From a virus: 63,171 nt of DNA. The DNA lies in IMG/VR virus record IMGVR_UViG_3300031949_000033, positions 1 through 63,171 of that record; one strand, given 5' to 3'. The first letter of the stretch is position 1; every line of letters starts with the position of its first letter. Of this stretch, positions 13,407 to 23,532 are shown piece by piece. The notes beneath the pieces were generated by a model. The model was not told the origin of the DNA. It did no database searches and saw nothing but the letters and a program-made list of their open reading frames with translations. The translations under genes were made by a program, and so were the position numbers.

Positions 13407-16400
13407 CTACTTCTCTGCTTTGGCTTGCGCCAACTGTATCCGCAGTTCGTCGACCTGCGCCCTCAATTCCTTGACGGCGTTGATCAGCGGGTACACGAAC
13501 GCAGCCTCACCCAGCATTTGCTGGCCGTTATCGCATTCCGACCAACCGTGGAACGCCGACTTGTCCGACTGCGCGTCCAGCGCTGCCTTCACGTCCTGCG
13601 CGAACATGCCGAGCACCGTCCTCTCAGTATTGACTTTGTTCTCCGGATCGACGCCCCATTCCTTCGGCCATTCGCTGACCGGCTTGAACGTGAACTCCAC
13701 GGGTTGGAGCATGCAGACGAAATCCAGGCCAAGGCGTGAATCCCACAACAGGTTTTTCATGCGCTTGTCCGAGGGTGCGTCCCAGGTCTGGTCGGTATCG
13801 TAGTTGCAGGTGATCGCCCGCGTGCCGTTGCCGAGCGTGATGGCACCGTCAGCGATGCCGGTTACGCCTCTACCCAGCACGATCTGGTCGATGGCGCCGC
13901 CCGCGGAAACCGTTGAATCCGTCCCGACTACGACGTTCCCGGTACCGCTGGTGAGCGTCGTCCCGCCCGCCAACCGACCTACGAGCGTGTTGTTGACGCC
14001 TGTGGTGACCGTTGCCCCCGCCTCGCTGCCGACCGCCGTATTCTCGCCTGAGGCCGTGCCGTTCATGGCCCGCAGCGCGCCGGTGCCGACGGCCACGCAA
14101 TCGTCATCGGTTGCACCAGCGGCGAGAAGCATGCTGTCCGCACCTACGGCGACGTTGGAATTGCCGGTCACGTTCGCGGTCAGCGCATTGAACCCGACGG
14201 CTACGGTATCGATTGCCGTAGTCGAAGCGAGCATCGCATTGCTGCCCAGCGCAGTATTCCCGCCCGAGGCGGAACCGTTCGCCACTTTGCCTGCGTTTGC
14301 ACCGACGAACACATTGTCATCGTCCGTCGCCCCGGCCTGAGCCGCACCGGCGTCCTCACCCATGGCCACATTGCGCAGACCCGTGATGTTCGCAGCGAGA
14401 GCCCTGGCGCCGACTGCCGTGTTGCCGTTCGCCGTCGAAGCTGAGAGCGCCGCGAAGCCAACCGCAGTTGCATCAATGGTAGTCACCGCAGCGTCGAGTG
14501 CCGTCGAGCCGACCGCCGTATTCCCGCCGCTCGCTGAACCGTTGGCGAGCAGACCGGCGTTGTGACCGATAAACACGTTGTCGTCATCGGTCGCCCCGGC
14601 CTGAGCCGCACCGGCGTCCTCCCCGACCGCTACGTTCCTCAGCCCGGTCACGTTCGCCGTGAGCGCGCGTGCACCGACCGCCGTGTTGCCATCTGCGGTT
14701 GAGGCATTCAACGCTTGGAAGCCGACGGCAGTGGCGTCAATCGACGTTACCGCAGTGGCCAGCGCACCGCTACCTACAGCCACGTCACCGCCCGAGGCCG
14801 TGCCATTCAGCAGCGTGAGCGCTTGGAATCCTACCGCCACGCAGTCGTCATCCGTCGCACCGGCTGCGGTCTTCATCGCATCGGCCCCGACTACCGTGTT
14901 CTGGTTGCCTGTGACCTGCGCGGCAAGGGCATCGAAGCCGACGGCGACGCAATCAATGGAAGTCGTCGAAGCCGTCATCGCGTTACTGCCGACCGCCGTA
15001 TTCCCGCCGCTCGCCGAGCCGTTCGCTGTGGCGCCAGCCAAGTTGCCGAGGAAGGTATTGTCGTTGTCGTTCGCGCCTGCGGACGCCGCGCCCGCATCGA
15101 CCCCCACTGCGACGTTACGCAGTCCAGCGACATTGGCCGTGAGCGCCCGCGCACCCATCGCCGTGTTGCCGTTTGCGGTACTGGCGCCCAGCGCGTTGAA
15201 TCCAACCGCAGTCGCATCGACCGAAGTCACGGCTGCATCCAAGGCTTTCGACCCCACAGCTGTATTGCCGCCCGAAGCCGAACCATTGGCGAGCAGACCG
15301 GCGTTATAGCCGATAAACACGTTGTCGTCGTCCGTTGCACCGGCCTGCGCGCCGCCTGCGTCCTCTCCGACCGCTACGTTCCTCAGGCCAGTCACATTGG
15401 CGTCCAGCGCGCGTGCCCCGACTGCGGTGTTTCCATTCGCCGTGCTCGCCGAAAGAGCGTTGAACCCGAGCGCCGTTGCATCAATCGTGGTAACAGCCGC
15501 GTCCAGTGCGTTCGCACCGACCGCCGTGTTTCCACCTGAAGCGGTACCGTTGATCAACTTTCCGGCGCCGTCCCCAATGAGGGTATTGTCGTCATCGGTT
15601 ACCCCTGCCATCGCCGCACCGGCGTCAACCCCGACCGCGACATTGCGCAAGCCCGTGACATTGGCCGCGAGAGCCCTGGCGCCAAGCGCCGTGTTGCCGT
15701 CAGCCGTTGAAGCCGAAAGGGCGTTGAACCCGACGGCCGTGGCGTCTACGGTCGTGACCGCCGCATCCAGCGCCTTGCTGCCGACCGCCGTGTTGCCACC
15801 CGAAGCCGAACCATTCGACAGTAACCCGGCGTTGTAGCCGATGAACACGTTGTCGTCATCCGTCGCCCCGGCCTGAGCCGCACCGGCGTCCTCGCCCATC
15901 GCCACATTGCGCAAGCCAGTGACATTGGCCGCCAGAGCGCGCGCCCCGACTGCGGTGTTCCCGTTGGCGGTTGAGGCTGAGAGCGCATTGAAGCCGACGG
16001 CAGTCGCATCGATTGTCGTGACTGCGGCGTCTAAAGCTTTCGACCCCACAGCCGTATTGCCGCCCGAAGCCGAGCCATTAGCGAGCAGACCGGCGTTGTG
16101 ACCGATGAAGACGTTGTCGTTGTCGTTCGCCCCGGCCGCCGCACCGCCTGCATCGAGGCCGACCGCGACGTTCCTGACGCCAGCCACATTAGCATCGAGG
16201 GCCCCGGCGCCGACCGCCGTATTCCCCGCTGCCGTGCTGGCTGCCAGCGCATCCTTGCCGAGCGCCGTTGCGCCAGCGCCGGTCTGATTCGCACCCAGCG
16301 CGTTGAACCCAACCGCCGTGCAGTCAATCGCCGTCGTGCCTGCGTTGAATGCCGTCGAGCCGACCACCGTATTGCCGCCGCTGGCACTGCCGTTCGCCAG

Positions 16401-17504
16401 CAACCCGGCGTTGTGACCGATAAACACGTTGTCGTTGTCGTTCGCCCCGGCCGCCGCACCGCCCGCATCAACGCCAACGGCGACGTTGCGTACGCCAGCG
16501 ACATTGGCGTCCAGCGCTCGCGCGCCCACGGCTACGTTCCCGCTCGCCGTGCTGGCACCCAGCGCGTTGAACCCGACAGCGGTTGCATCAATCGATGTCA
16601 CGGCTGCATCCAGCGCCTTGCTGCCGACCGCCGTGTTGCCGCCGCTGGCACTGCCATTCGCCAGCAGACCGGCGTTATAGCCGACGAAGACGTTGTCGTC
16701 GTCCGTTGCACCGGCCTGCGCGCCGCCTGCGTCCTCTCCGACCGCTACGTTCCTCAGCCCGGTCACATTGGCGTCCAGCGCTCGCGCCCCCATCGCCGTG
16801 TTGCCGTTTGCGGTGCTTGCGCCCAGCGCGTTGAATCCAACCGCCGTGGCGTCAATGCTGGTGACTGCCGCATCGAGGGCTCCGCTTCCTACTGCGGTAT
16901 TCCCGCCGCTCGCCGAACCATTGGCCAGCTTCAGCGCGTTGTAGCCGACGGCGACGTTGTTGTCGTCCTCGGTACCAGCTGCCGTGAGCAAGGCATCCTT
17001 GCCGAGCGCAGTGTTCTGGTTGCCGGTAATGTTGGCGCTGAGCGCGCCGATACCGATGGCGACATTATTGGCACCCGTGGTATTGGCGTCCAACGCCGTT
17101 CCGCCGAGCGCCTGGTTCGTCGCCACCGCTCCGGCACCGAGAATGTTCACGAGGCGGAAATCGCCGATATCCTTGTTGCCGTCGACGACCACGGCCTTGC
17201 TGGCGGCTACCGTGCCAGGAGTTACGCCGTCGACCACGGTCCCCACACCGAAGTCGCCGTTGTAAACCCAGTCCGCCGAGGTCGGACCGATGGCGCGGTA
17301 GAAGTCCAAGGCGTCCGCACTGGACGTATTGGCGCACCATTCTCCCCGGAAGTTCGGCGTGATGTTGTTGGTCGGATCCCCTGCGTATTCCCTGTAGCCC
17401 AGCACGCTTGCTACCTCGCCGCGGTTCACCATCGGCGGGACGATTTCCTCCATCACGTCGACACTGCTTTTGCCCTTCTGCTGCATCTTGGTTTGAATTG
17501 CCAT
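13407..17504 (-). CDS. Giant fibre protein: YadA-head-like tandem repeats plus C-terminal S74-type intramolecular chaperone domain
   Basis: 1365-aa ORF. About 12 tandem units read like NTAVGxxALxAxxxxxxATAVGFNAL...NVAVGxDAG...DDDNVFxGxNAG..ANGSASGG. The C-terminal 121 aa start SDKRMKN (SDxRxK auto-cleavage motif) at 13407..13772. Confidence 0.8.
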   Translation of the reverse strand: MAIQTKMQQKGKSSVDVMEEIVPPMVNRGEVASVLGYREYAGDPTNNITPNFRGEWCANTSSADALDFYRAIGPTSADWVYNGDFGVGTVVDGVTPGTVAASKAVVVDGNKDIGDFRLVNILGAGAVATNQALGGTALDANTTGANNVAIGIGALSANITGNQNTALGKDALLTAAGTEDDNNVAVGYNALKLANGSASGGNTAVGSGALDAAVTSIDATAVGFNALGASTANGNTAMGARALDANVTGLRNVAVGEDAGGAQAGATDDDNVFVGYNAGLLANGSASGGNTAVGSKALDAAVTSIDATAVGFNALGASTASGNVAVGARALDANVAGVRNVAVGVDAGGAAAGANDNDNVFIGHNAGLLANGSASGGNTVVGSTAFNAGTTAIDCTAVGFNALGANQTGAGATALGKDALAASTAAGNTAVGAGALDANVAGVRNVAVGLDAGGAAAGANDNDNVFIGHNAGLLANGSASGGNTAVGSKALDAAVTTIDATAVGFNALSASTANGNTAVGARALAANVTGLRNVAMGEDAGAAQAGATDDDNVFIGYNAGLLSNGSASGGNTAVGSKALDAAVTTVDATAVGFNALSASTADGNTALGARALAANVTGLRNVAVGVDAGAAMAGVTDDDNTLIGDGAGKLINGTASGGNTAVGANALDAAVTTIDATALGFNALSASTANGNTAVGARALDANVTGLRNVAVGEDAGGAQAGATDDDNVFIGYNAGLLANGSASGGNTAVGSKALDAAVTSVDATAVGFNALGASTANGNTAMGARALTANVAGLRNVAVGVDAGAASAGANDNDNTFLGNLAGATANGSASGGNTAVGSNAMTASTTSIDCVAVGFDALAAQVTGNQNTVVGADAMKTAAGATDDDCVAVGFQALTLLNGTASGGDVAVGSGALATAVTSIDATAVGFQALNASTADGNTAVGARALTANVTGLRNVAVGEDAGAAQAGATDDDNVFIGHNAGLLANGSASGGNTAVGSTALDAAVTTIDATAVGFAALSASTANGNTAVGARALAANITGLRNVAMGEDAGAAQAGATDDDNVFVGANAGKVANGSASGGNTALGSNAMLASTTAIDTVAVGFNALTANVTGNSNVAVGADSMLLAAGATDDDCVAVGTGALRAMNGTASGENTAVGSEAGATVTTGVNNTLVGRLAGGTTLTSGTGNVVVGTDSTVSAGGAIDQIVLGRGVTGIADGAITLGNGTRAITCNYDTDQTWDAPSDKRMKNLLWDSRLGLDFVCMLQPVEFTFKPVSEWPKEWGVDPENKVNTERTVLGMFAQDVKAALDAQSDKSAFHGWSECDNGQQMLGEAAFVYPLINAVKELRAQVDELRIQLAQAKAEK
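13960..17060 (-). repeat. In-frame tandem coding repeats, about 264 nt (88 aa) per unit, some units longer
   Basis: Long near-identical DNA blocks recur through the region. One example is gttgtcgtcgtccgttgcaccggcctgcgcgccgcctgcgtcctctccgaccgctacgttcctcag at about 15320 and about 16690. Boundaries are approximate. Confidence 0.75.
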
Positions 17505-17576: not shown

Positions 17577-19760
17577 CTATACCGGCGGCCCTTTGGTTGG
17601 CGGTGCGGCGAGTCGCCCCGACGCCCCTCTGCCCTCTGGCATGCCATGAATGATTCCTGCCGGACTCTCCGGCGGCGCTCCCGGCGTGCCCATCGGTGGC
17701 TCCTGTTTGCCGGGTACGCCGTGCGGCTGCGGTGCCGGGATCTGGTTCGGCAGGATGAGTTGCCCTTGCTTGAGCGCTGCCGCCAAGTCGTCTGCCGTCA
17801 GCAATCCCTGCGCCCGCAAATAAGCCGAGAGCCGCGCCTTGATGAGCGTCTTCTGCGGCGCGCTCGACAGGTCGACGGCGATATCCTGGATCATCGGGAT
17901 CGGCAAGATGCCTTTCTCGATAAGCTCCATAAGCTCCTCGAACTGCGCGTTGAGGAAGGTCGCCGACAGGCTGGTTTCGTCGACCGCCACGTCGTAGCGA
18001 CCGATGGTTACGTCGTTTACGATGCGCCCTGTGGCATCGGCGATGTTGATGCCGACCGCGTTCCAACTCCCGTTGATGTCCTGCACGCGCAACAGGCGCG
18101 GTTCGGTGTAGAAGCTCTGGATGAGTTCGAGCTTCTTGCGGCCACACATGCGCTTGCTGCGGCGCGCGTTGTCCATGTAGATTTCGATGCCGAGGACGGA
18201 TTGTCTCTGCCTGGCTTCGATGGCCCGCCCCGATTGGACGCGATCCAATTGGCCGAGCGCGCTGTCGTTGATGCCGAGTATTTCCTTGAGGTCGCCGGTA
18301 TTGGCTTTCTCCAGACGCTCCAAGGCGTTCGGCGGAAGGGGCGGCCGGATCTGTTCCGGTTTGCCGTCCGAGCCCCCTTTCCACTCAATGTTGATTCCGG
18401 GTGCCGCACCGAAGTTTTCGATCTTCTCTTTCTCGGCGTCCTCGAGCGCGTTCACATGCCACATCCACCCGGCGAAGGCCTGACGGGTGATGACATCCGT
18501 TTCAGCGGATCGGCGCTTGTTGATCTCCGTTTGCGGGTCCAAGCCGTCCTCCACGATGCCGCGCGTCTTGCCGCGCCGGAAGTACGGAAAGAACGGGATC
18601 TGCGTGAAGCTCTTGTACTTGCTCCAGTCGTCGTAGATGATGATATCGCCGAGAATGGTCGTCCAGCGCACACGCTTGGTCGGTCGCCATTGCACGCGCA
18701 GCGGATTGGCCTTGCCCTGTCTGGCGTACTGTTCGGCGCCCCACATGAGAATTCTTTGCACCGCGGCTTGATCCAGGCGATCTGGAAGCGGTATCTTGTC
18801 GCCGGTCTCCAGGTTGATGATATGCCTGACCATGCTGCGGATACGGTGCTGCATTTCGATCAACCTGATGTTCTTGCGGTAGGGATCGACGACGTTGGCG
18901 ATGTAGTTGTGCACGCTGTAGCCGCCCACCATGCCGTCAGGCTGCTGACCGCCAAAGGTGCGCCATGGCGTGACCTCGGCAAGAGCATCCATCATGTCAG
19001 AGGGCACCCCGCCACGGTACCCGGAACTCCGCACCAGCGGTTCCACCAAACCCGATATCTGCCGCCCGTAGGTGTACTCGACCTCATCCAGGTTGACCCA
19101 TCGGCCCTCGCTGACATGGCCCCAGTCGTCCGGGTCGTAGCTGTCCGCATCGGCGTCCGGCCGGATCGTAAACGGGTCCTTCGAGGTTACCCGCGCGTCG
19201 CCGAGATCGTTGCGCTCGAAACTCAGCCGCCAGTCGTAATAGCCCCTGCCGCCGACGATACCGTCCAGGAAGCACTCGGCATCGACATAGGCTTCGTCGC
19301 AGTTCATGGCGATTTGCTTGGACTGCTTGGTCAACAGATCGGCGACGGCCTCGTCGCTCGCCGTATCGTCGGTGGGCAGATAACGGTTGTCGACGCGGTT
19401 GTTACGGTGATAGCCAATAACCAAACGTACCAGGGCACCGAGCTTGTTGAGGGTGAGCGTGGGGCGGTCTTCCTCGATCGCCTGTCTTATCTCGTCCGCG
19501 CTCCACTGTTTCCCCTCCACGAAGTCGAAGCACTTCTTGGCGATATCCGACCACGCCTGCAAGGCCATGTCGTCGCGCTGGTAGCGCTCGACCATGAGCA
19601 GCAACAGTTCCGGGTTGTGAGCTGCCGGTAGAATCCCGTTGGCGCCCATCATCGGGTTCCACGTCGGATCTTCCCCCCAGATCGGGTCGGTTTTCGCACC
19701 CGGGATCGGCGGCGCCCAGGAAAACCTGCTGGGTATGAAGAGGTTGTCAACGGCTCCCAT
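17577..19760 (-). CDS. Portal protein
   Basis: 727 aa from Met52 of ORF 17577..19913. Its ATG overlaps the TerL stop (TGATG). It contains FVEGKQWSADEIRQAIEEDRPTLTLNKL, a portal/connector-like motif, and lies downstream of the terminase. Confidence 0.75.
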   Translation of the reverse strand: MGAVDNLFIPSRFSWAPPIPGAKTDPIWGEDPTWNPMMGANGILPAAHNPELLLLMVERYQRDDMALQAWSDIAKKCFDFVEGKQWSADEIRQAIEEDRPTLTLNKLGALVRLVIGYHRNNRVDNRYLPTDDTASDEAVADLLTKQSKQIAMNCDEAYVDAECFLDGIVGGRGYYDWRLSFERNDLGDARVTSKDPFTIRPDADADSYDPDDWGHVSEGRWVNLDEVEYTYGRQISGLVEPLVRSSGYRGGVPSDMMDALAEVTPWRTFGGQQPDGMVGGYSVHNYIANVVDPYRKNIRLIEMQHRIRSMVRHIINLETGDKIPLPDRLDQAAVQRILMWGAEQYARQGKANPLRVQWRPTKRVRWTTILGDIIIYDDWSKYKSFTQIPFFPYFRRGKTRGIVEDGLDPQTEINKRRSAETDVITRQAFAGWMWHVNALEDAEKEKIENFGAAPGINIEWKGGSDGKPEQIRPPLPPNALERLEKANTGDLKEILGINDSALGQLDRVQSGRAIEARQRQSVLGIEIYMDNARRSKRMCGRKKLELIQSFYTEPRLLRVQDINGSWNAVGINIADATGRIVNDVTIGRYDVAVDETSLSATFLNAQFEELMELIEKGILPIPMIQDIAVDLSSAPQKTLIKARLSAYLRAQGLLTADDLAAALKQGQLILPNQIPAPQPHGVPGKQEPPMGTPGAPPESPAGIIHGMPEGRGASGRLAAPPTKGPPV

Positions 19761-22700
19761 CAGAGGCGCCCTCCACGCCGGCGCCATGGCTTGGTTCCTG
19801 CCACGCCACGCGCGGTCAATCGCCTCTGCCATTGCGGCGTTGTGTTCAACATGGCCCCCACGGATTCGACGGTGACATATTTCAACGCCAGATACTGTAA
19901 CCCATCGTGACAATTCGAGACGAGCACCCCGTTTGCGTAGAATGTGTGGGTATCCTCGACGGTCAAGTCATAGACGCGCTCTCTTCGACCGTGACAGGGC
20001 TTTACGCCAGCAACCGTTAGAGCATGTTCTGGTGCGTGCGTAGCGGTTGATCTTGAAAGCTGACCCGCAGACTGCACAGCTTCGTTCCTCGTCGTCGACT
20101 CCTGAATCGCGTCTCGCCTTTGACTGACAGGCTGCCGAACAATATCCCTTCTTCGGCGCAAGGGTAACATATCGTTTTTCGCATATCCTGCAAATTCTCT
20201 CCACTGGCTGTCGATTGCTCCAAGCGCGCTTTGCCTGCTCTGCATGCCAACGTCTCCCTTCGTCGCTCGCGTGCCATTGCCTTGCCGCCGGGATAACGCA
20301 GTCGAGCATGTGTCGTTTTGCCTCGTCGGGGTTTTCTCTGACGCGTTTTCGTGAGTGATATGCTGCGTGCGCAGTGTCGCTAAGTAAGTGAAGATTTTCG
20401 ATCGCGTTATGGTCTTTATCTTCGTCGCCGTGATGAATGTCGAACCCGTGAGGGATCGGCCCATTGTGATGCCGCCAAATATCCCGATGCAGATACGTGC
20501 CGCCGAACCTATTGTCGCAACGGTAGTATCCTTCAGGCTTGCGATAATACGTGCGAGCGTTGAAGACAACGGCTTTGTTCTTTCTTGGTCTTCCCATTGT
20601 GCCCCGGCCATCGTTTTCAATACGTCGCCGTATTGTAGTGCATCTGCTCTGACCCTGCCGCGATCCAGGATAAACTCGTGGTCCGCCGTGCAGCACACCG
20701 AATCACAATTTGAGAATCGCACGGTGACGAGGTTGTTAGACATCCTGTTCATCGTCGCCGTTACCCTGCGCGCTCCGTTATGCGTTAGCACCACGTCGCC
20801 GACACTGATCGATTCGATTGGTACACCACCCTCTGCCGTGGCTACGAGCGTGCCCGCGACGAAACAGTGCGAGTATTTGTTTTTGTAAGCCTCATTCTGG
20901 TATCTGGCCTCTCCTGTGACCTGAATGCGCCTATAGTGGTAGCCTCCCTTGAATCCCTTGAGCAATGTTTTCGCGGAACTGTCGATGAGGATGGCCGGTT
21001 CACCGTCGGTCAGTTTGGTGAGAAACCAGGCCACCGCCTCGCGCCGCGGCTGGAATTCGTAGGCTTTGGCCTTCTCCCATTCCCAGTGCCCCTCGTCGAG
21101 AATATCGGCGCAACTGACCTCATCGGACTGCGCCCGCTCTCCAACCTGCGGATCGCAGACGATCCTGTAGCGCCTGTCAACACCGAATCGGTTGGCAAGG
21201 TAGGGCTTCAGAGCGTCGCTCAAAAACGCGCGCAACCCCATACTGCGTTCCCTGGCGCAGCACTCTCCCAATACGAGTAGTTGCCCTTTCGGGCTGCACT
21301 GCCCGGGGACCGCCGCCGGCGACAGTCCGAAGTCCAGGCCGATGTCGATCGGCATGCCTGATATCGGCGTGAGATCGCGTTTCACCCCATGGATTCGCTG
21401 ATTGAATTCCGGGTAACACGGGATGCCGTCAATGACCTTGCCGTAGTTGTTCAGCAGGTAGGTGCTGATCCAGTCCTCGCTCTTGCCGGCGACCAGTTGC
21501 AGCCAGTAGGCCATGCCCATCGGCTGATTGACGACGTTCTCCGCCTCAGGATTCGGGAAGTAACTGCCGTCGATCTTGAGCAGCGCCGGTGGCTGGTCGA
21601 AAAATTCGATGAGCGGTCGATGCACACCGATGCTGGCCAGAACCGCGCGCAGCTTCGCCATCATTTCCTGAATTTCCTTTCCGCGCTCTTCGTCGTCCGG
21701 TCCGACATCCAGGTCGTGCCACCAGTGGTCGTCGTCCATGGAGTTCGTGTCCATGATCACGCCCGCCCAGGTGAACGGAGCACCATCCTTCTTCAGCGGG
21801 AAGCGGCCGACCCGGGCGCTGCCGTCGTCCAATACGAGCTTGTCGAGTTGTCCGGCCTCGTTCAACCATAGCCCGGTCAGGTCCAGCGATTTCAGCTTGC
21901 CGATCGCCGCAGGGTGATCACAGGACATGAAGAGCACTTCCAAATGCATGATGGTGCCGTCGTCCAAAGCAAGCTTGACCGTTGCCTCAATCGGGGCCCC
22001 CCAATTCATCTTGACAACGTCTTCCCCAAACCATGACAAGAACGTGAAAATAGTTGTCGACTCAAGCTGCGGGTAGGTATTACGTATAGCCGCCCAGCGC
22101 GTCCGCCGTATGCCGCGGTCATCCGGTTCCTGCTGGACTGCGCGTAGCGCTATCTCGGCGACGCAGGCGACCGATTTGCCGCTGTTTCCAGTGACGCAGA
22201 TCGAGTCGTTGCGGCGCGTGACGAAAAACCCGGTGGATGTGTGGAAGCAGTATTTCTTGCCGTCCACGGAAGGCACGCGCTCGATGGGTATTTTCCGGCT
22301 GCCGTTGCGGATACCGGCGTATCCTCGCGACGATCCTATCACCCTGTATGACCGACTCCAGCCCGGCTTACGTCCTTCTTGAGTTCCAACCGATGCACGC
22401 CGTCCGCACGCCGAAAACGCGTAGGCGACGAATTCCGCGCAGGCACGATCGGTCGTGTAGTAGCCCCAGTCGCCGTAACCCTGGTCTTCGCTGCCGTCCC
22501 AGCGCAAGCATTCGGCGGCGATGATCTTTAGTTGCGCCGCGCTCGCCTGCCAGTATTTGGCCAAACTCTTGTTGCGCTCCGGCGCTTCGAAGCGAAACGT
22601 GGTTTCGGTAGGACGGTTCGGGTTGTCGTATTCGCTCCATGCGATGCCGGCCATGACAAGCAATTGTCGGACCCGCAATTTTTTGTCGGCGCGACGCACG

Positions 22701-23263
22701 CAGACCGTACAACGCGTCGTTTTTGTGCGCTGCGAAAACGAGCCGTCCGCGCAGACCATGACCATGACGCGCAGCTCGGCGTCGTTGAGGCCGACACCCA
22801 CAGCGTTCTCCGGCGGCGGGAAGCAGCACGGAACCAATCCGGGCCAGCCGTCTTTCAGGTGCTGGTGCTGGAATGCCAAGCCGGCCGCCCTGATTTGCCT
22901 GAGCACGCCGGGTTTGGCTTTGACGAAATACGGGATCAAGTGCTCGTCGCTCGCCATGATGTCGAGCCCGCGCGACTTCAGATGGATGAAAGCGTCGCAG
23001 TCGGCCACGATACGCGAGACCGCCTCGAACCATGAACGGTTGTTCTCCGGGTCGACGACGAGAATTTCCTCGCCTGCCCAGCGATCCATGCGCACCCAGC
23101 CGGTGCGGGTCATAACCTCGTGGTCTGCGGAATTGCACCCGTATGGACCGCGGATACCGCGGATGAACGCGTTGCTCTTGTGAAATCGGGCCGGAGTTTT
23201 CTCGGCGCGGTAGTGGAATCGGAATTCCTGACGCCTGCTGCCGTAGCTTTGGATGGATGTCAT
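19760..23263 (-). CDS. terL: Terminase large subunit precursor (1167 aa) carrying two inteins; mature extein about 531 aa
   Basis: Walker A GPYG/SGKS is split by insert 1. Walker B-like LDLTGLWLNEA is present. The nuclease motif KNKYSH/CHDGLQYL is split by insert 2. The gene lies upstream of the portal. Confidence 0.85.
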   Translation of the reverse strand: MTSIQSYGSRRQEFRFHYRAEKTPARFHKSNAFIRGIRGPYGCNSADHEVMTRTGWVRMDRWAGEEILVVDPENNRSWFEAVSRIVADCDAFIHLKSRGLDIMASDEHLIPYFVKAKPGVLRQIRAAGLAFQHQHLKDGWPGLVPCCFPPPENAVGVGLNDAELRVMVMVCADGSFSQRTKTTRCTVCVRRADKKLRVRQLLVMAGIAWSEYDNPNRPTETTFRFEAPERNKSLAKYWQASAAQLKIIAAECLRWDGSEDQGYGDWGYYTTDRACAEFVAYAFSACGRRASVGTQEGRKPGWSRSYRVIGSSRGYAGIRNGSRKIPIERVPSVDGKKYCFHTSTGFFVTRRNDSICVTGNSGKSVACVAEIALRAVQQEPDDRGIRRTRWAAIRNTYPQLESTTIFTFLSWFGEDVVKMNWGAPIEATVKLALDDGTIMHLEVLFMSCDHPAAIGKLKSLDLTGLWLNEAGQLDKLVLDDGSARVGRFPLKKDGAPFTWAGVIMDTNSMDDDHWWHDLDVGPDDEERGKEIQEMMAKLRAVLASIGVHRPLIEFFDQPPALLKIDGSYFPNPEAENVVNQPMGMAYWLQLVAGKSEDWISTYLLNNYGKVIDGIPCYPEFNQRIHGVKRDLTPISGMPIDIGLDFGLSPAAVPGQCSPKGQLLVLGECCARERSMGLRAFLSDALKPYLANRFGVDRRYRIVCDPQVGERAQSDEVSCADILDEGHWEWEKAKAYEFQPRREAVAWFLTKLTDGEPAILIDSSAKTLLKGFKGGYHYRRIQVTGEARYQNEAYKNKYSHCFVAGTLVATAEGGVPIESISVGDVVLTHNGARRVTATMNRMSNNLVTVRFSNCDSVCCTADHEFILDRGRVRADALQYGDVLKTMAGAQWEDQERTKPLSSTLARIIASLKDTTVATIGSAARICIGIFGGITMGRSLTGSTFITATKIKTITRSKIFTYLATLRTQHITHENASEKTPTRQNDTCSTALSRRQGNGTRATKGDVGMQSRQSALGAIDSQWREFAGYAKNDMLPLRRRRDIVRQPVSQRRDAIQESTTRNEAVQSAGQLSRSTATHAPEHALTVAGVKPCHGRRERVYDLTVEDTHTFYANGVLVSNCHDGLQYLALKYVTVESVGAMLNTTPQWQRRLTARGVAGTKPWRRRGGRL
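19913..20866 (-). mobile_element. Intein 2 (aa 800-1117 of TerL), inserted in the nuclease motif
   Basis: Begins CFVAGTLVATAEGGVPIESISVGDVVLTHNG, contains CTADHEF (block B), and ends VYDLTVEDTHTFYANGVLVSN followed by Cys. The in-frame middle part is not protein-like. Confidence 0.75.
19968..20597 (-). CDS. HNH homing endonuclease ORF nested out of frame inside intein 2
   Basis: MGRPRKNKAVVFNARTYYRKPEGYY...GFDIHHGDEDKDHNAIENLHLLSDTAHAAYH (HNH motif) plus two C-terminal CxxC...CxxxC clusters. The frame is offset by 2 relative to TerL. The full ORF-track extent is 19968..20696. Confidence 0.7.
   Translation of the reverse strand: MGRPRKNKAVVFNARTYYRKPEGYYRCDNRFGGTYLHRDIWRHHNGPIPHGFDIHHGDEDKDHNAIENLHLLSDTAHAAYHSRKRVRENPDEAKRHMLDCVIPAARQWHASDEGRRWHAEQAKRAWSNRQPVERICRICEKRYVTLAPKKGYCSAACQSKARRDSGVDDEERSCAVCGSAFKINRYARTRTCSNGCWRKALSRSKRARL
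22184..23137 (-). mobile_element. Intein 1 (aa 43-360 of TerL) with LAGLIDADG-type endonuclease, inserted in the Walker A P-loop
   Basis: Begins CNSADHEVMTRTGW and has a SDEH block. It carries two LAGLIDADG-like motifs (LRVMVMVCADGSF and IAAECLRWDGSE) and ends FFVTRRNDSICVTGN followed by Ser. Excision restores GPYGSGKS. Confidence 0.75.
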
Positions 23264-23532
23264 CGGCGCCTGAGTTGGTATAGGTCTGCTTTACCGACAA
23301 AGCCGGTGCGCTCTATCTGGTGCTTGGCGGCTTGGATGGCCGAGTAGGCGACGAAACGGTTCAGCCCGGTCCTGACTGCGATTTCGTTGACGGTAAGAGG
23401 GCGCTTTGTTTTCTTCAGCGCTTCTATGACCTGGTTGATGTGTTTTTTAACTATTGAGATCTGCGGCTGCCATGGCGGCGAGGTGATGAGGGCCAGAAAT
23501 GGGTTGGTTCCCACTGCCGGCCGCCTCGCCAT
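23260..23532 (-). CDS. Winged-helix DNA-binding protein immediately upstream of TerL (candidate small terminase or packaging specificity factor)
   Basis: 90 aa from Met29. HINQVIEALKKTKRPLTVNEIAVRTGLNRFVAYSAIQAAKHQIERTG looks like a wHTH. Its stop overlaps the TerL ATG (ATGA). Confidence 0.5.
   Translation of the reverse strand: MARRPAVGTNPFLALITSPPWQPQISIVKKHINQVIEALKKTKRPLTVNEIAVRTGLNRFVAYSAIQAAKHQIERTGFVGKADLYQLRRR

Follow-up and report, generated by a model that had tools for sequence, protein, structure and literature searches.

We analysed a 63,171-nucleotide stretch of viral DNA (IMG/VR virus record IMGVR_UViG_3300031949_000033; the window, below), in which the gene for the terminase large subunit, TerL, carries two inteins. 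The second of these, intein 2, is in our judgement likely to be a composite selfish element, in which a mini-intein is combined with a separately translated, out-of-frame HNH homing endonuclease. The endonuclease is encoded on the same strand as TerL but in another frame, between the two lobes of the splicing domain, and both frames are open across it. A preliminary description, made from the letters of the window, had reported this overlap and knew of no earlier description of such an arrangement. Sequence comparison across phage isolates, metagenomes and bacterial genomes confirms that the out-of-frame layout predicted in the window is real and conserved in 85 loci; the claim to novelty, in contrast, is reduced, as a 2025 preprint (10.1101/2025.01.02.630785) reports such inteins. 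The elements of the arrangement, in window coordinates, are as follows; here and below a slash marks a splice junction or the equivalent point of an uninterrupted sequence.

19760..23263, minus strand: TerL precursor open reading frame (ORF), 1167 amino acids (aa), with two inteins and no internal stop
19913..20866, minus strand: intein 2, aa 800-1117 of TerL, 318 aa, from Cys1 (CFVAGTLV) to the terminal Asn (VLVSN)
20615..20866, minus strand: N-terminal splicing lobe of intein 2 with blocks A and B, block B being TADHEF at 20672..20689
19968..20597, minus strand: HNH endonuclease gene, the likely true coding sequence, 209 aa plus stop, from a conserved ATG at 20597
20027..20614, minus strand: read-through of the HNH gene in the TerL frame, aa 884-1079, a 'nonsense-like' intein linker with no stop
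19913..20017, minus strand: C-terminal splicing lobe of intein 2, IntC-like, about 35 aa, with blocks F and G, block F being VYDLTV at 19958..19975
19910..19912, minus strand: +1 Cys codon of the C-extein (C/HDGLQY); intein-less alleles have Pro here (THPHDALQY)

The 531-aa extein that would be left by splicing matches the terminase large subunit family PHROG 2 (E=6.4e-14), and a P22-like portal gene comes after terL. A sequence search of the spliced extein against the PDB gave no match, and neither did blastn of the terL gene against GenBank phages. Intein 2 was recovered by the Pfam models Hint_2 (33.7 bits, cutoff 28.4), PT-HINT (29.2, cutoff 27.7) and, by a narrow margin, Intein_splicing (36.8 bits, cutoff 35.8). 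It displays the hallmarks of a class 1 intein, with C800 as the N-terminal Cys, the block B motif TADHEF at aa 859-864, and blocks F and G of the form VYDLTVEDTHTFYANGVLVSN/C, where the terminal Asn is followed by the +1 Cys. Judging from these motifs, it is most likely a mini-intein of class 1 that interrupts a conserved motif close to the C-terminus of TerL (...KYSH/C...SN/CHDGLQY), which we take to be a motif of the terminase nuclease domain.

The nuclease frame forms a maximal ORF of 242 codons (19968..20696, minus strand), which is offset by +2 relative to TerL ((23263-20696) mod 3 = 2). It matches the Pfam family HNH_3 (E=2.1e-12, 46.9 bits, cutoff 24.8) and, over its full length, PHROG 15471 'HNH endonuclease' (E=1.2e-37), which upholds the earlier reading of this frame as an HNH nuclease; the Pfam search returned no match to Endonuclease_7 at E<=0.1. 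The parts of this ORF are:

20598..20696, minus strand: upstream extension of the maximal ORF to a GTG at 20696, probably untranslated
20602..20605, minus strand: putative Shine-Dalgarno-like GGGG, 4 nucleotides upstream of the HNH ATG, with a presumed function
20364..20495, minus strand: HNH catalytic core, LHRDIW...IHHGDEDKDHNAIENLHLL...H, with Pfam HNH_3 at residues 68-111 of the 242-aa ORF
20010..20192, minus strand: two zinc-ribbon-like CxxC...CxxxC clusters in the C-terminal half of the protein
19968..19970, minus strand: HNH stop TGA, formed within TAT-GAC, the Tyr-Asp codons of block F

In alignments of the family, the core residues H55, H56, D58, N64, N68, H77 and H81 are invariant, as are the Cys residues of the two clusters that had been noted at the outset (C136/C139/C153/C157 and C174/C177/C192/C196). 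These clusters are locally similar to YacG-type zinc fingers in Foldseek comparisons, and AlphaFold2 models the HNH-frame protein with a mean predicted local distance difference test score (pLDDT) of 86.9, from only six sequences. The preliminary description had the ORF opening just after block B; this is true of the maximal ORF with its GTG at 20696, but the conserved start is the ATG at 20597, about 25 codons past block B and just beyond the predicted N-terminal splicing lobe. A close relative of the window from an independent metagenome (L089, 94% identical) has a stop in the upstream extension, so that its open stretch begins 21 codons later; the GTG is not the conserved start, because this stop lies downstream of it, while the ATG at 20597 is common to both and is also kept at the equivalent position in other relatives. 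At the other end, the stop does fall at the start of block F as originally stated: the TGA is built from the Tyr-Asp codons of VYDLTV, and many relatives form their stop alike, with TGA arising from TAT GAx or TAA from TAT AAT. The first ~15 codons of the C-terminal lobe, encoding its first strand, overlap the 3' end of the HNH gene.

Translated in the TerL frame, this DNA had been called nonsense-like, and structure prediction bears this out. AlphaFold2 gives the read-through linker a pLDDT of ~26-34 (about 29), and its sole secondary structure is a low-confidence helix at residues 107-124. The N-terminal lobe is predicted as beta-strands over fragment residues 5-89 (pLDDT ~60-81), and the C-terminal lobe as strands over residues 289-321, with a pLDDT of 72-79 over ~289-310 and below 50 from 311 onward. 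On the basis of these models, the read-through is most likely a disordered linker that would be removed by splicing. The HNH gene sits where natural split inteins break. It also stands out in composition, as had been remarked earlier: the GC fraction is 0.51-0.55 across the HNH region versus ~0.60 in its flanks. At third codon positions it is 0.55 in the HNH gene as against 0.77 in the extein and portal genes of the window. Hence, the HNH gene is without the codon bias of its host phage, which might reflect either dual-coding constraint or recent arrival.

We propose that the HNH gene, which is of the free-standing type, is nested in a loop that joins the two splicing lobes and would be dispensable. 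Ribosomes translating TerL would read through it to yield a ~195-residue disordered linker, which splicing of the intein would discard, thereby restoring TerL function. The nuclease would be made separately and at a low level, by internal initiation at the ATG at 20597. Like other homing endonucleases, it would be expected to cut the intein-less terL of co-infecting phages, and repair would then copy the entire block of intein and HNH gene into the cut allele. Throughout, selection would keep the TerL frame free of stops, as terL is essential and would be lost to any stop in this region.

Several points weigh against this interpretation. For every member of the family, splicing competence, separate translation of the nuclease and the cleavage target are deduced from sequence, and splicing across a disordered insert of ~195 residues is an assumption. 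Block G of intein 2 ends in Ser-Asn and not the usual His-Asn (relatives show VHN or VSN), and the intein model, derived from a 6-sequence alignment, has a mean pLDDT of only 44. The top PDB match of the HNH model is I-HmuI (1u3e; probability 0.98, E=8e-3), with a template modelling score of only 0.24-0.29, the model being elongated and multi-domain. The GGGG site in the window is weak and several relatives show no Shine-Dalgarno-like site, while many others have stronger AGGAG or GGAGG sites at a similar spacing before the HNH start. A rough neighbour-joining tree of 111 HNH sequences mixes nested and free-standing forms, with at least 13 changes of state, and its resolution is too poor to decide whether nesting arose once or repeatedly. 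Lastly, the openness of the TerL frame in the window alone lacks statistical significance. When the synonymous codons of the HNH gene are permuted, the probability of finding no stop in the TerL frame is 0.18, and when codons are redrawn from the usage of the extein and portal genes it is 0.07; only a naive model using base composition alone gives 1e-4. The initial argument that a stop-free frame of this length is unlikely by chance thus does not stand on the window alone. Openness by itself means little here, because a chance ORF at 22368..23300 is open at the same offset. For the low-GC phages Highwayman and phiCDHM19, the probability of an open TerL frame given the HNH protein is 2e-4 each.

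These probabilities, together with the existence of long chance ORFs in terL such as that at 22368..23300, would suit a view in which the HNH ORF is a decaying relic, with only the intein and its junk linker mattering and the second frame being open by chance in GC-rich DNA. The pattern of substitutions makes this very improbable. Between the window and L089, position 3 of the TerL codons takes 131/160, 23/36 and 9/10 of the changes outside the overlap, while inside it position 3 of the HNH codons, which is position 2 of TerL, takes 26 of the 41 changes. In the 210 codons of the overlap, these result in 14 amino-acid changes in the HNH frame versus 29 in the TerL frame, i.e. the read-through protein evolves about twice as fast as the HNH frame. 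The comparison of relatives for constraint that the preliminary description had suggested extends this pattern: in eight close pairs pooled, HNH position 3 accounts for 450 of 804 differences in the overlap (chi-square P=4e-41), and the flanking TerL sequence of these pairs shows the normal third-position excess. As substitutions switch phase in the overlap to the third positions of the HNH codons, these alignments show that purifying selection acts on the HNH frame. Further, relatives of 25-47% identity retain every catalytic and zinc-binding residue, all 111 HNH sequences in the analysis have an unbroken ORF, and the fold is predicted with confidence.

The significance of the open TerL frame comes from the relatives, and here the sequence comparison is decisive. 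We found no TerL-frame stop in any of the 85 nested loci (the window and 84 relatives), whereas each of the 31 non-nested homologues used as a control has stops in the TerL-equivalent frame, 1-14 apiece; the host frame is thus kept open, as had been proposed. In the third frame, the nested loci carry 0-36 stops, the first five to be examined having 8-36. A search with tblastn against GenBank phages matched both free-standing 'HNH endonuclease' genes and the interiors of annotated terL genes, the latter in the unrelated phages Acinetobacter Highwayman, Tetrasphaera TJE1, Rhodobacteraceae LS06-2018-MD07 and Clostridium phiCDHM19 (GC 0.31-0.58). In all four of these, the HNH frame has the +2 offset and the annotated TerL frame is free of stops. 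Their records (GenBank OZ038341, HQ225832, OP947163 and LK985322; our L001-L004) have only 'terminase large subunit' annotated over an intact HNH gene, and the inteins are unannotated too. A scan of IMG/VR with the single HNH protein of the window gave no confirmed relative, while an alignment-based scan gave 80 loci, 63 of which have the HNH gene within an ORF of 730-960 aa, again nested at this offset. In a profile scan of genome contigs, 16 of 26 contigs from bacteria or metagenome-assembled genomes proved to be nested, including those of Prevotella, Streptomyces, Nocardiopsis, Coprococcus, Burkholderiaceae, Sutterella, Planctomycetales, Rhodospirillaceae, Kangiellaceae and Gemmatimonadaceae. 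Thus, the HNH family spans Pseudomonadota, Bacillota, Bacteroidota, Actinomycetota and Planctomycetota, among others. A protein search found only 5 called HNH homologues.

The nested loci all share the ...N/C.DA..Y insertion site, within about one residue, and in 69 of the 69 compared blocks F and G and this junction come directly after the HNH stop. A TerL relative of 868 aa (P0005) has the same type of intein one residue further along (...KYSHP/C...HN/CEAAQY versus ...KYSH/C...SN/CHDGLQY in the window); the insertion point in the motif is therefore not strictly fixed. This recurrence also bears on the possibility that the HNH domain is truly in frame with the intein and was displaced by two compensating sequencing or assembly errors near 20700 and 19965, as might happen in any single assembly. 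The independently assembled L089 has the same frames and no difference in length, and one offset is common to all 85 loci, whether they come from phage isolates, IMG/VR or bacterial genomes. Moreover, the HNH gene has its own start and stop, with an HNH-frame stop close upstream of the start in many relatives. Hence, the artefact that the preliminary description had wished to see excluded can be dismissed with near certainty.

The position of the start codon is informative as to how the nuclease might be expressed. In nested copies the start, mostly ATG and otherwise GTG, precedes the LHRxIW motif by 27-56 codons (mostly 34-49), free-standing genes begin at a like distance from it, and many nested loci have an HNH-frame stop just 0-4 codons ahead of the HNH start. 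This sequence pattern favours internal initiation, from which we infer that the nuclease is separately translated. The alternative is programmed frameshifting, with a -1 shift into the HNH frame after block B followed by a shift back or by termination at the HNH stop. Phages do use programmed frameshifts, and the HNH stop lies exactly at block F, stop codons being the kind of site at which +1 shifts occur, as in prfB; in one variant contig (L092, below) the HNH frame is in frame with blocks F and G and the C-extein. However, frameshifting would make an open TerL frame needless, yet it is open in every nested locus, and the HNH-frame stops just before the start leave no room for an upstream shift site, while the start codons are conserved at the expected place. 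In the window, no canonical slippery heptamer was seen near 20600 (by eye, with no systematic scan), and CTA, the P-site codon ahead of the stop, is ill suited to re-pairing in the +1 frame. We accordingly regard frameshifting as quite unlikely, and internal initiation as the better account.

That the intein with its HNH gene is mobile is suggested by its distribution. Two relatives with TerL 70% and 58% identical (P0002 at locus L090 and P0003 at L091) possess an equivalent of intein 1 of the window but lack intein 2, reading ...KYTHPHDALQ... where the window has ...KYSH/intein/CHDGLQ...; the intein-less site of L090 is ...AAGTACACGCAC/CCGCACGACGCG..., also given as AATGAGCCCTACGACAACAAGTACACGCAC/CCGCACGACGCGCTGCAG, and terL there abuts the portal gene. 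The other intein is:

22184..23137, minus strand: intein 1, aa 43-360 of TerL, inserted inside the Walker A motif (GPYG/C...VTGN/SGKS)

Since intein 1 is kept in TerLs without intein 2, the two inteins therefore come and go independently. Among 62 nested loci, the median pairwise identity is 0.39 for the HNH protein, 0.38 for the Hint lobes and 0.18 for the exteins. Individual pairs show the same at the DNA level: L020 and L027 share an island of 71-90% identity over the intein between flanks of ~50-60%, L086 and L088 have 2 differences in the overlap versus 214 outside it, and L037 and L041 have 0 versus 283. The free-standing homologues that we checked, including those of PAE1, CL2 and SN1, adjoin the 3' end of terL in either orientation, which is the usual position of a homing endonuclease near its target. 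Thus, on sequence grounds, both the patchy distribution and the islands of similarity fit a homing endonuclease targeting terL.

The constant association with terL, inside its intein or right beside its 3' end, might equally be read as that of a terminase accessory nuclease like HK97 gp74, which is not, or no longer, a homing endonuclease. Terminase-assisting HNH proteins are known: zinc-ribbon HNH enzymes occur beside terminase genes (PMC3592412), and a role of HNH proteins in DNA packaging has been mentioned (PMC11855218, section 4.2). In contrast to this expectation, no HNH homologue was found at the fetched L090 and L091 loci, which also lack intein 2, and the HNH protein is therefore dispensable. 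The family is also patchy, with only 3 Pseudomonas phage records found by tblastn, and near-identical islands of intein and HNH in diverged terL genes are the signature of a mobile element. Its core is of the HNH_3/I-HmuI-like type; HK97 gp74 is a small PF01844-type HNH unlike this core. An accessory role alone hence seems improbable, if less so than frameshifting, although homing and packaging roles are not mutually exclusive.

Two origins had been offered for the nuclease, namely a free-standing gene that invaded a mini-intein and an intein domain that slipped out of frame. The former seems to fit better, because none of the loci examined in IMG/VR and in the contigs of bacteria and metagenome-assembled genomes has an HNH domain in frame with the intein on both sides, and each nested copy has its own start and its own stop. 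Some variants depart from the common layout. In the IMG/VR contig L079 (positions 1-700), and possibly in L053 (positions 1-700), stops close the TerL frame across the HNH gene. In L079, an AAGGTGG site precedes a GTG at the HNH stop, from which an ORF runs that comprises an IntC of ~35 aa and the TerL C-extein. From their sequence, L079 and possibly L053 look like a split-intein, 'fractured' terL, the contigs beginning inside the HNH gene with the N-terminal half outside view. In a third variant (L092, positions 436-1245 of ENA contig k141_1357277; P0042), the HNH frame, lacking a stop, reads on in frame through blocks F and G and into the C-extein, and the TerL/IntN frame upstream crosses the linker before ending at a stop of its own. 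This single contig of 1.5 kb may represent a true HNH-IntC fusion or split form, or else contain a single-base assembly error. It is conceivable, if somewhat less likely than not, that this one HNH family holds every stage of the association between endonuclease and intein, i.e. free-standing, nested, split and fused to the C-terminal lobe. If so, the model of 'splicing first, then free-standing endonuclease invasion' could be tested within a single HNH family, and the shared +2 offset would be a general rule by which a gene can be threaded only through the host frame that is poorest in stops.

Beyond the HNH gene, several further features of the region were noted. Intein 1 has a LAGLIDADG-like motif LRVMVMVCADGSF and the terminal residues Gly-Asn; searched alone against Pfam, the copy in the window gave no match, while TerL homologues with an equivalent insert have a precomputed match to PF14528 (LAGLIDADG_3). 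The chance ORF mentioned above (22368..23300, minus strand, 310 codons) lies at a +2 offset over the TerL N-extein and intein 1 and encodes an Arg/Pro-rich, low-complexity sequence; its length varies, being 230 codons in L089, and it is not kept in L090 either. We rejected it as an extra gene on account of its low complexity and unconserved length, and take it for a chance ORF of GC-rich DNA. A plus-strand ORF at 20388..20888, with a low-complexity Arg/Pro-rich translation, was likewise set aside as a chance ORF. Downstream of the portal gene, a 1365-aa protein (13407..17504, minus strand) consists of many ~100-aa Ala/Gly/Asn-rich repeats (GGNTAVGSxALDAAVT..DATAVGFNAL...) and has at its C-terminus a weak match, below the cutoff, to Peptidase_S74, the endosialidase chaperone (E=0.0012). 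A tail fibre or spike that carries a self-cleaving chaperone domain is the probable identity of this protein.

Taken together, these results indicate that the overprinted homing endonuclease within an intein is not a rarity of actinobacteriophages, but a stable and widespread arrangement that also exists in a second, unrelated nuclease family. As gene callers report only the long TerL ORF, the nested nuclease genes remain invisible in databases. The HNH family provides material for testing how inteins gain endonucleases and how split inteins arise. In addition, natural Hint domains that tolerate a junk insert of ~200 residues at the canonical split site are of relevance to intein engineering. 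It is the breadth, stability and hidden nature of the arrangement that are notable, the principle itself being no longer new after the reports of 2025.

The closest known systems are the actinobacteriophage inteins, many of them in TerL, described by Gosselin, Arsenault and Gogarten (bioRxiv 10.1101/2025.01.02.630785), which carry antisense LAGLIDADG or VSR-like nucleases; antisense endonucleases in inteins date, as cited there, to Gorbalenya 1998. The same preprint (10.1101/2025.01.02.630785) reports an endonuclease VII-like homing endonuclease in 'reading frame 3 relative to the intein' in Keitabear, Sedona and Affeca. As in the window, this nuclease is encoded on the strand of the intein itself, its ORF separates the two splicing lobes and the intein frame stays open; our translation of the Keitabear intein places the nuclease in frame 3, the same +2 offset, with its stop just before block F. 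Their structure predictions also find that the intein-frame translation of the homing endonuclease region forms no recognisable structure, like the linker of the window. However, the Keitabear nuclease is of the Endonuclease_7 type (CxxC...DHDH; PDB 1E7D over residues 1-67; IPR004211), whereas that of the window belongs to HNH_3/PHROG 15471, has two C-terminal zinc ribbons and finds its best structural match in I-HmuI. We considered whether the HNH of the window is the preprint's out-of-frame nuclease family and rejected this, as the Keitabear product bears no resemblance to it. The preprint lists HNH only as an in-frame type, and these in-frame HNH inteins, which we considered as possible cousins, were rejected as well, being of an unrelated small HNH type. 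Their survey was limited to actinobacteriophages, while the family of the window spans many phyla. The +2 offset is probably the only workable one, because, of the frames that overlap a coding one, that lying one base downstream contains the fewest stops. The use of this offset by two unrelated nuclease families suggests such a constraint, and their common descent need not be invoked to explain it.

A second comparison is offered by the ShiLan domain (Arsenault et al., Genes 2025, PMC11855218). This out-of-frame HNH lies within a DNA methylase gene of a mycobacteriophage, and starts and stops independently of it. The two are alike in the host gene staying open, in their patchy, homing-like distribution and in raising the same question of how the nuclease is translated. 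However, ShiLan is without an intein or splicing element and its insert is thought to stay as a loop in the host protein, whereas the nuclease of the window is flanked by blocks A, B, F and G, which would be able to remove the junk peptide. In the 'fractured genes' (Dassa et al. 2009, PMC2677866), the halves of a split intein flank a homing endonuclease gene of the free-standing kind, a form that L079 and possibly L053 resemble. There too the nuclease gene is at the split-intein break, with an N-terminal lobe of ~100 aa and a C-terminal lobe of ~35 aa, but the terL of the window is one continuous ORF with a contiguous intein and a frame that is open through the nuclease. The nuclease of the fractured genes is VSR-like and not HNH_3, as summarised in 10.1101/2025.01.02.630785.

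Canonical bifunctional inteins, with LAGLIDADG or in-frame HNH domains, have their nuclease in the same place, between blocks B and F, and presumably the same cycle of homing and splicing; in the window, in contrast, the nuclease is a separate protein from another frame and not a domain of the intein. The free-standing PHROG 15471 HNHs (PAE1 Orf3, CL2 gp3, Shemara gp03) are homologous over their full length at 33-39% identity and have the same core and zinc ribbons; they are adjacent to terL, intergenic and without overlap, and have stops in the TerL-equivalent frame. A packaging HNH of the HK97 gp74 type would be expected to be a consistent partner of the terminase among related phages, unlike the patchy HNH family of the window. 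Our literature searches brought up no description of the present HNH_3 intein family. Thus, while this class of architecture has been known since 2025, the family found in the window is apparently undescribed and widespread, and it differs from the inteins reported in 2025 in its nuclease family, its cosmopolitan distribution and the direct evidence for constraint on both frames.

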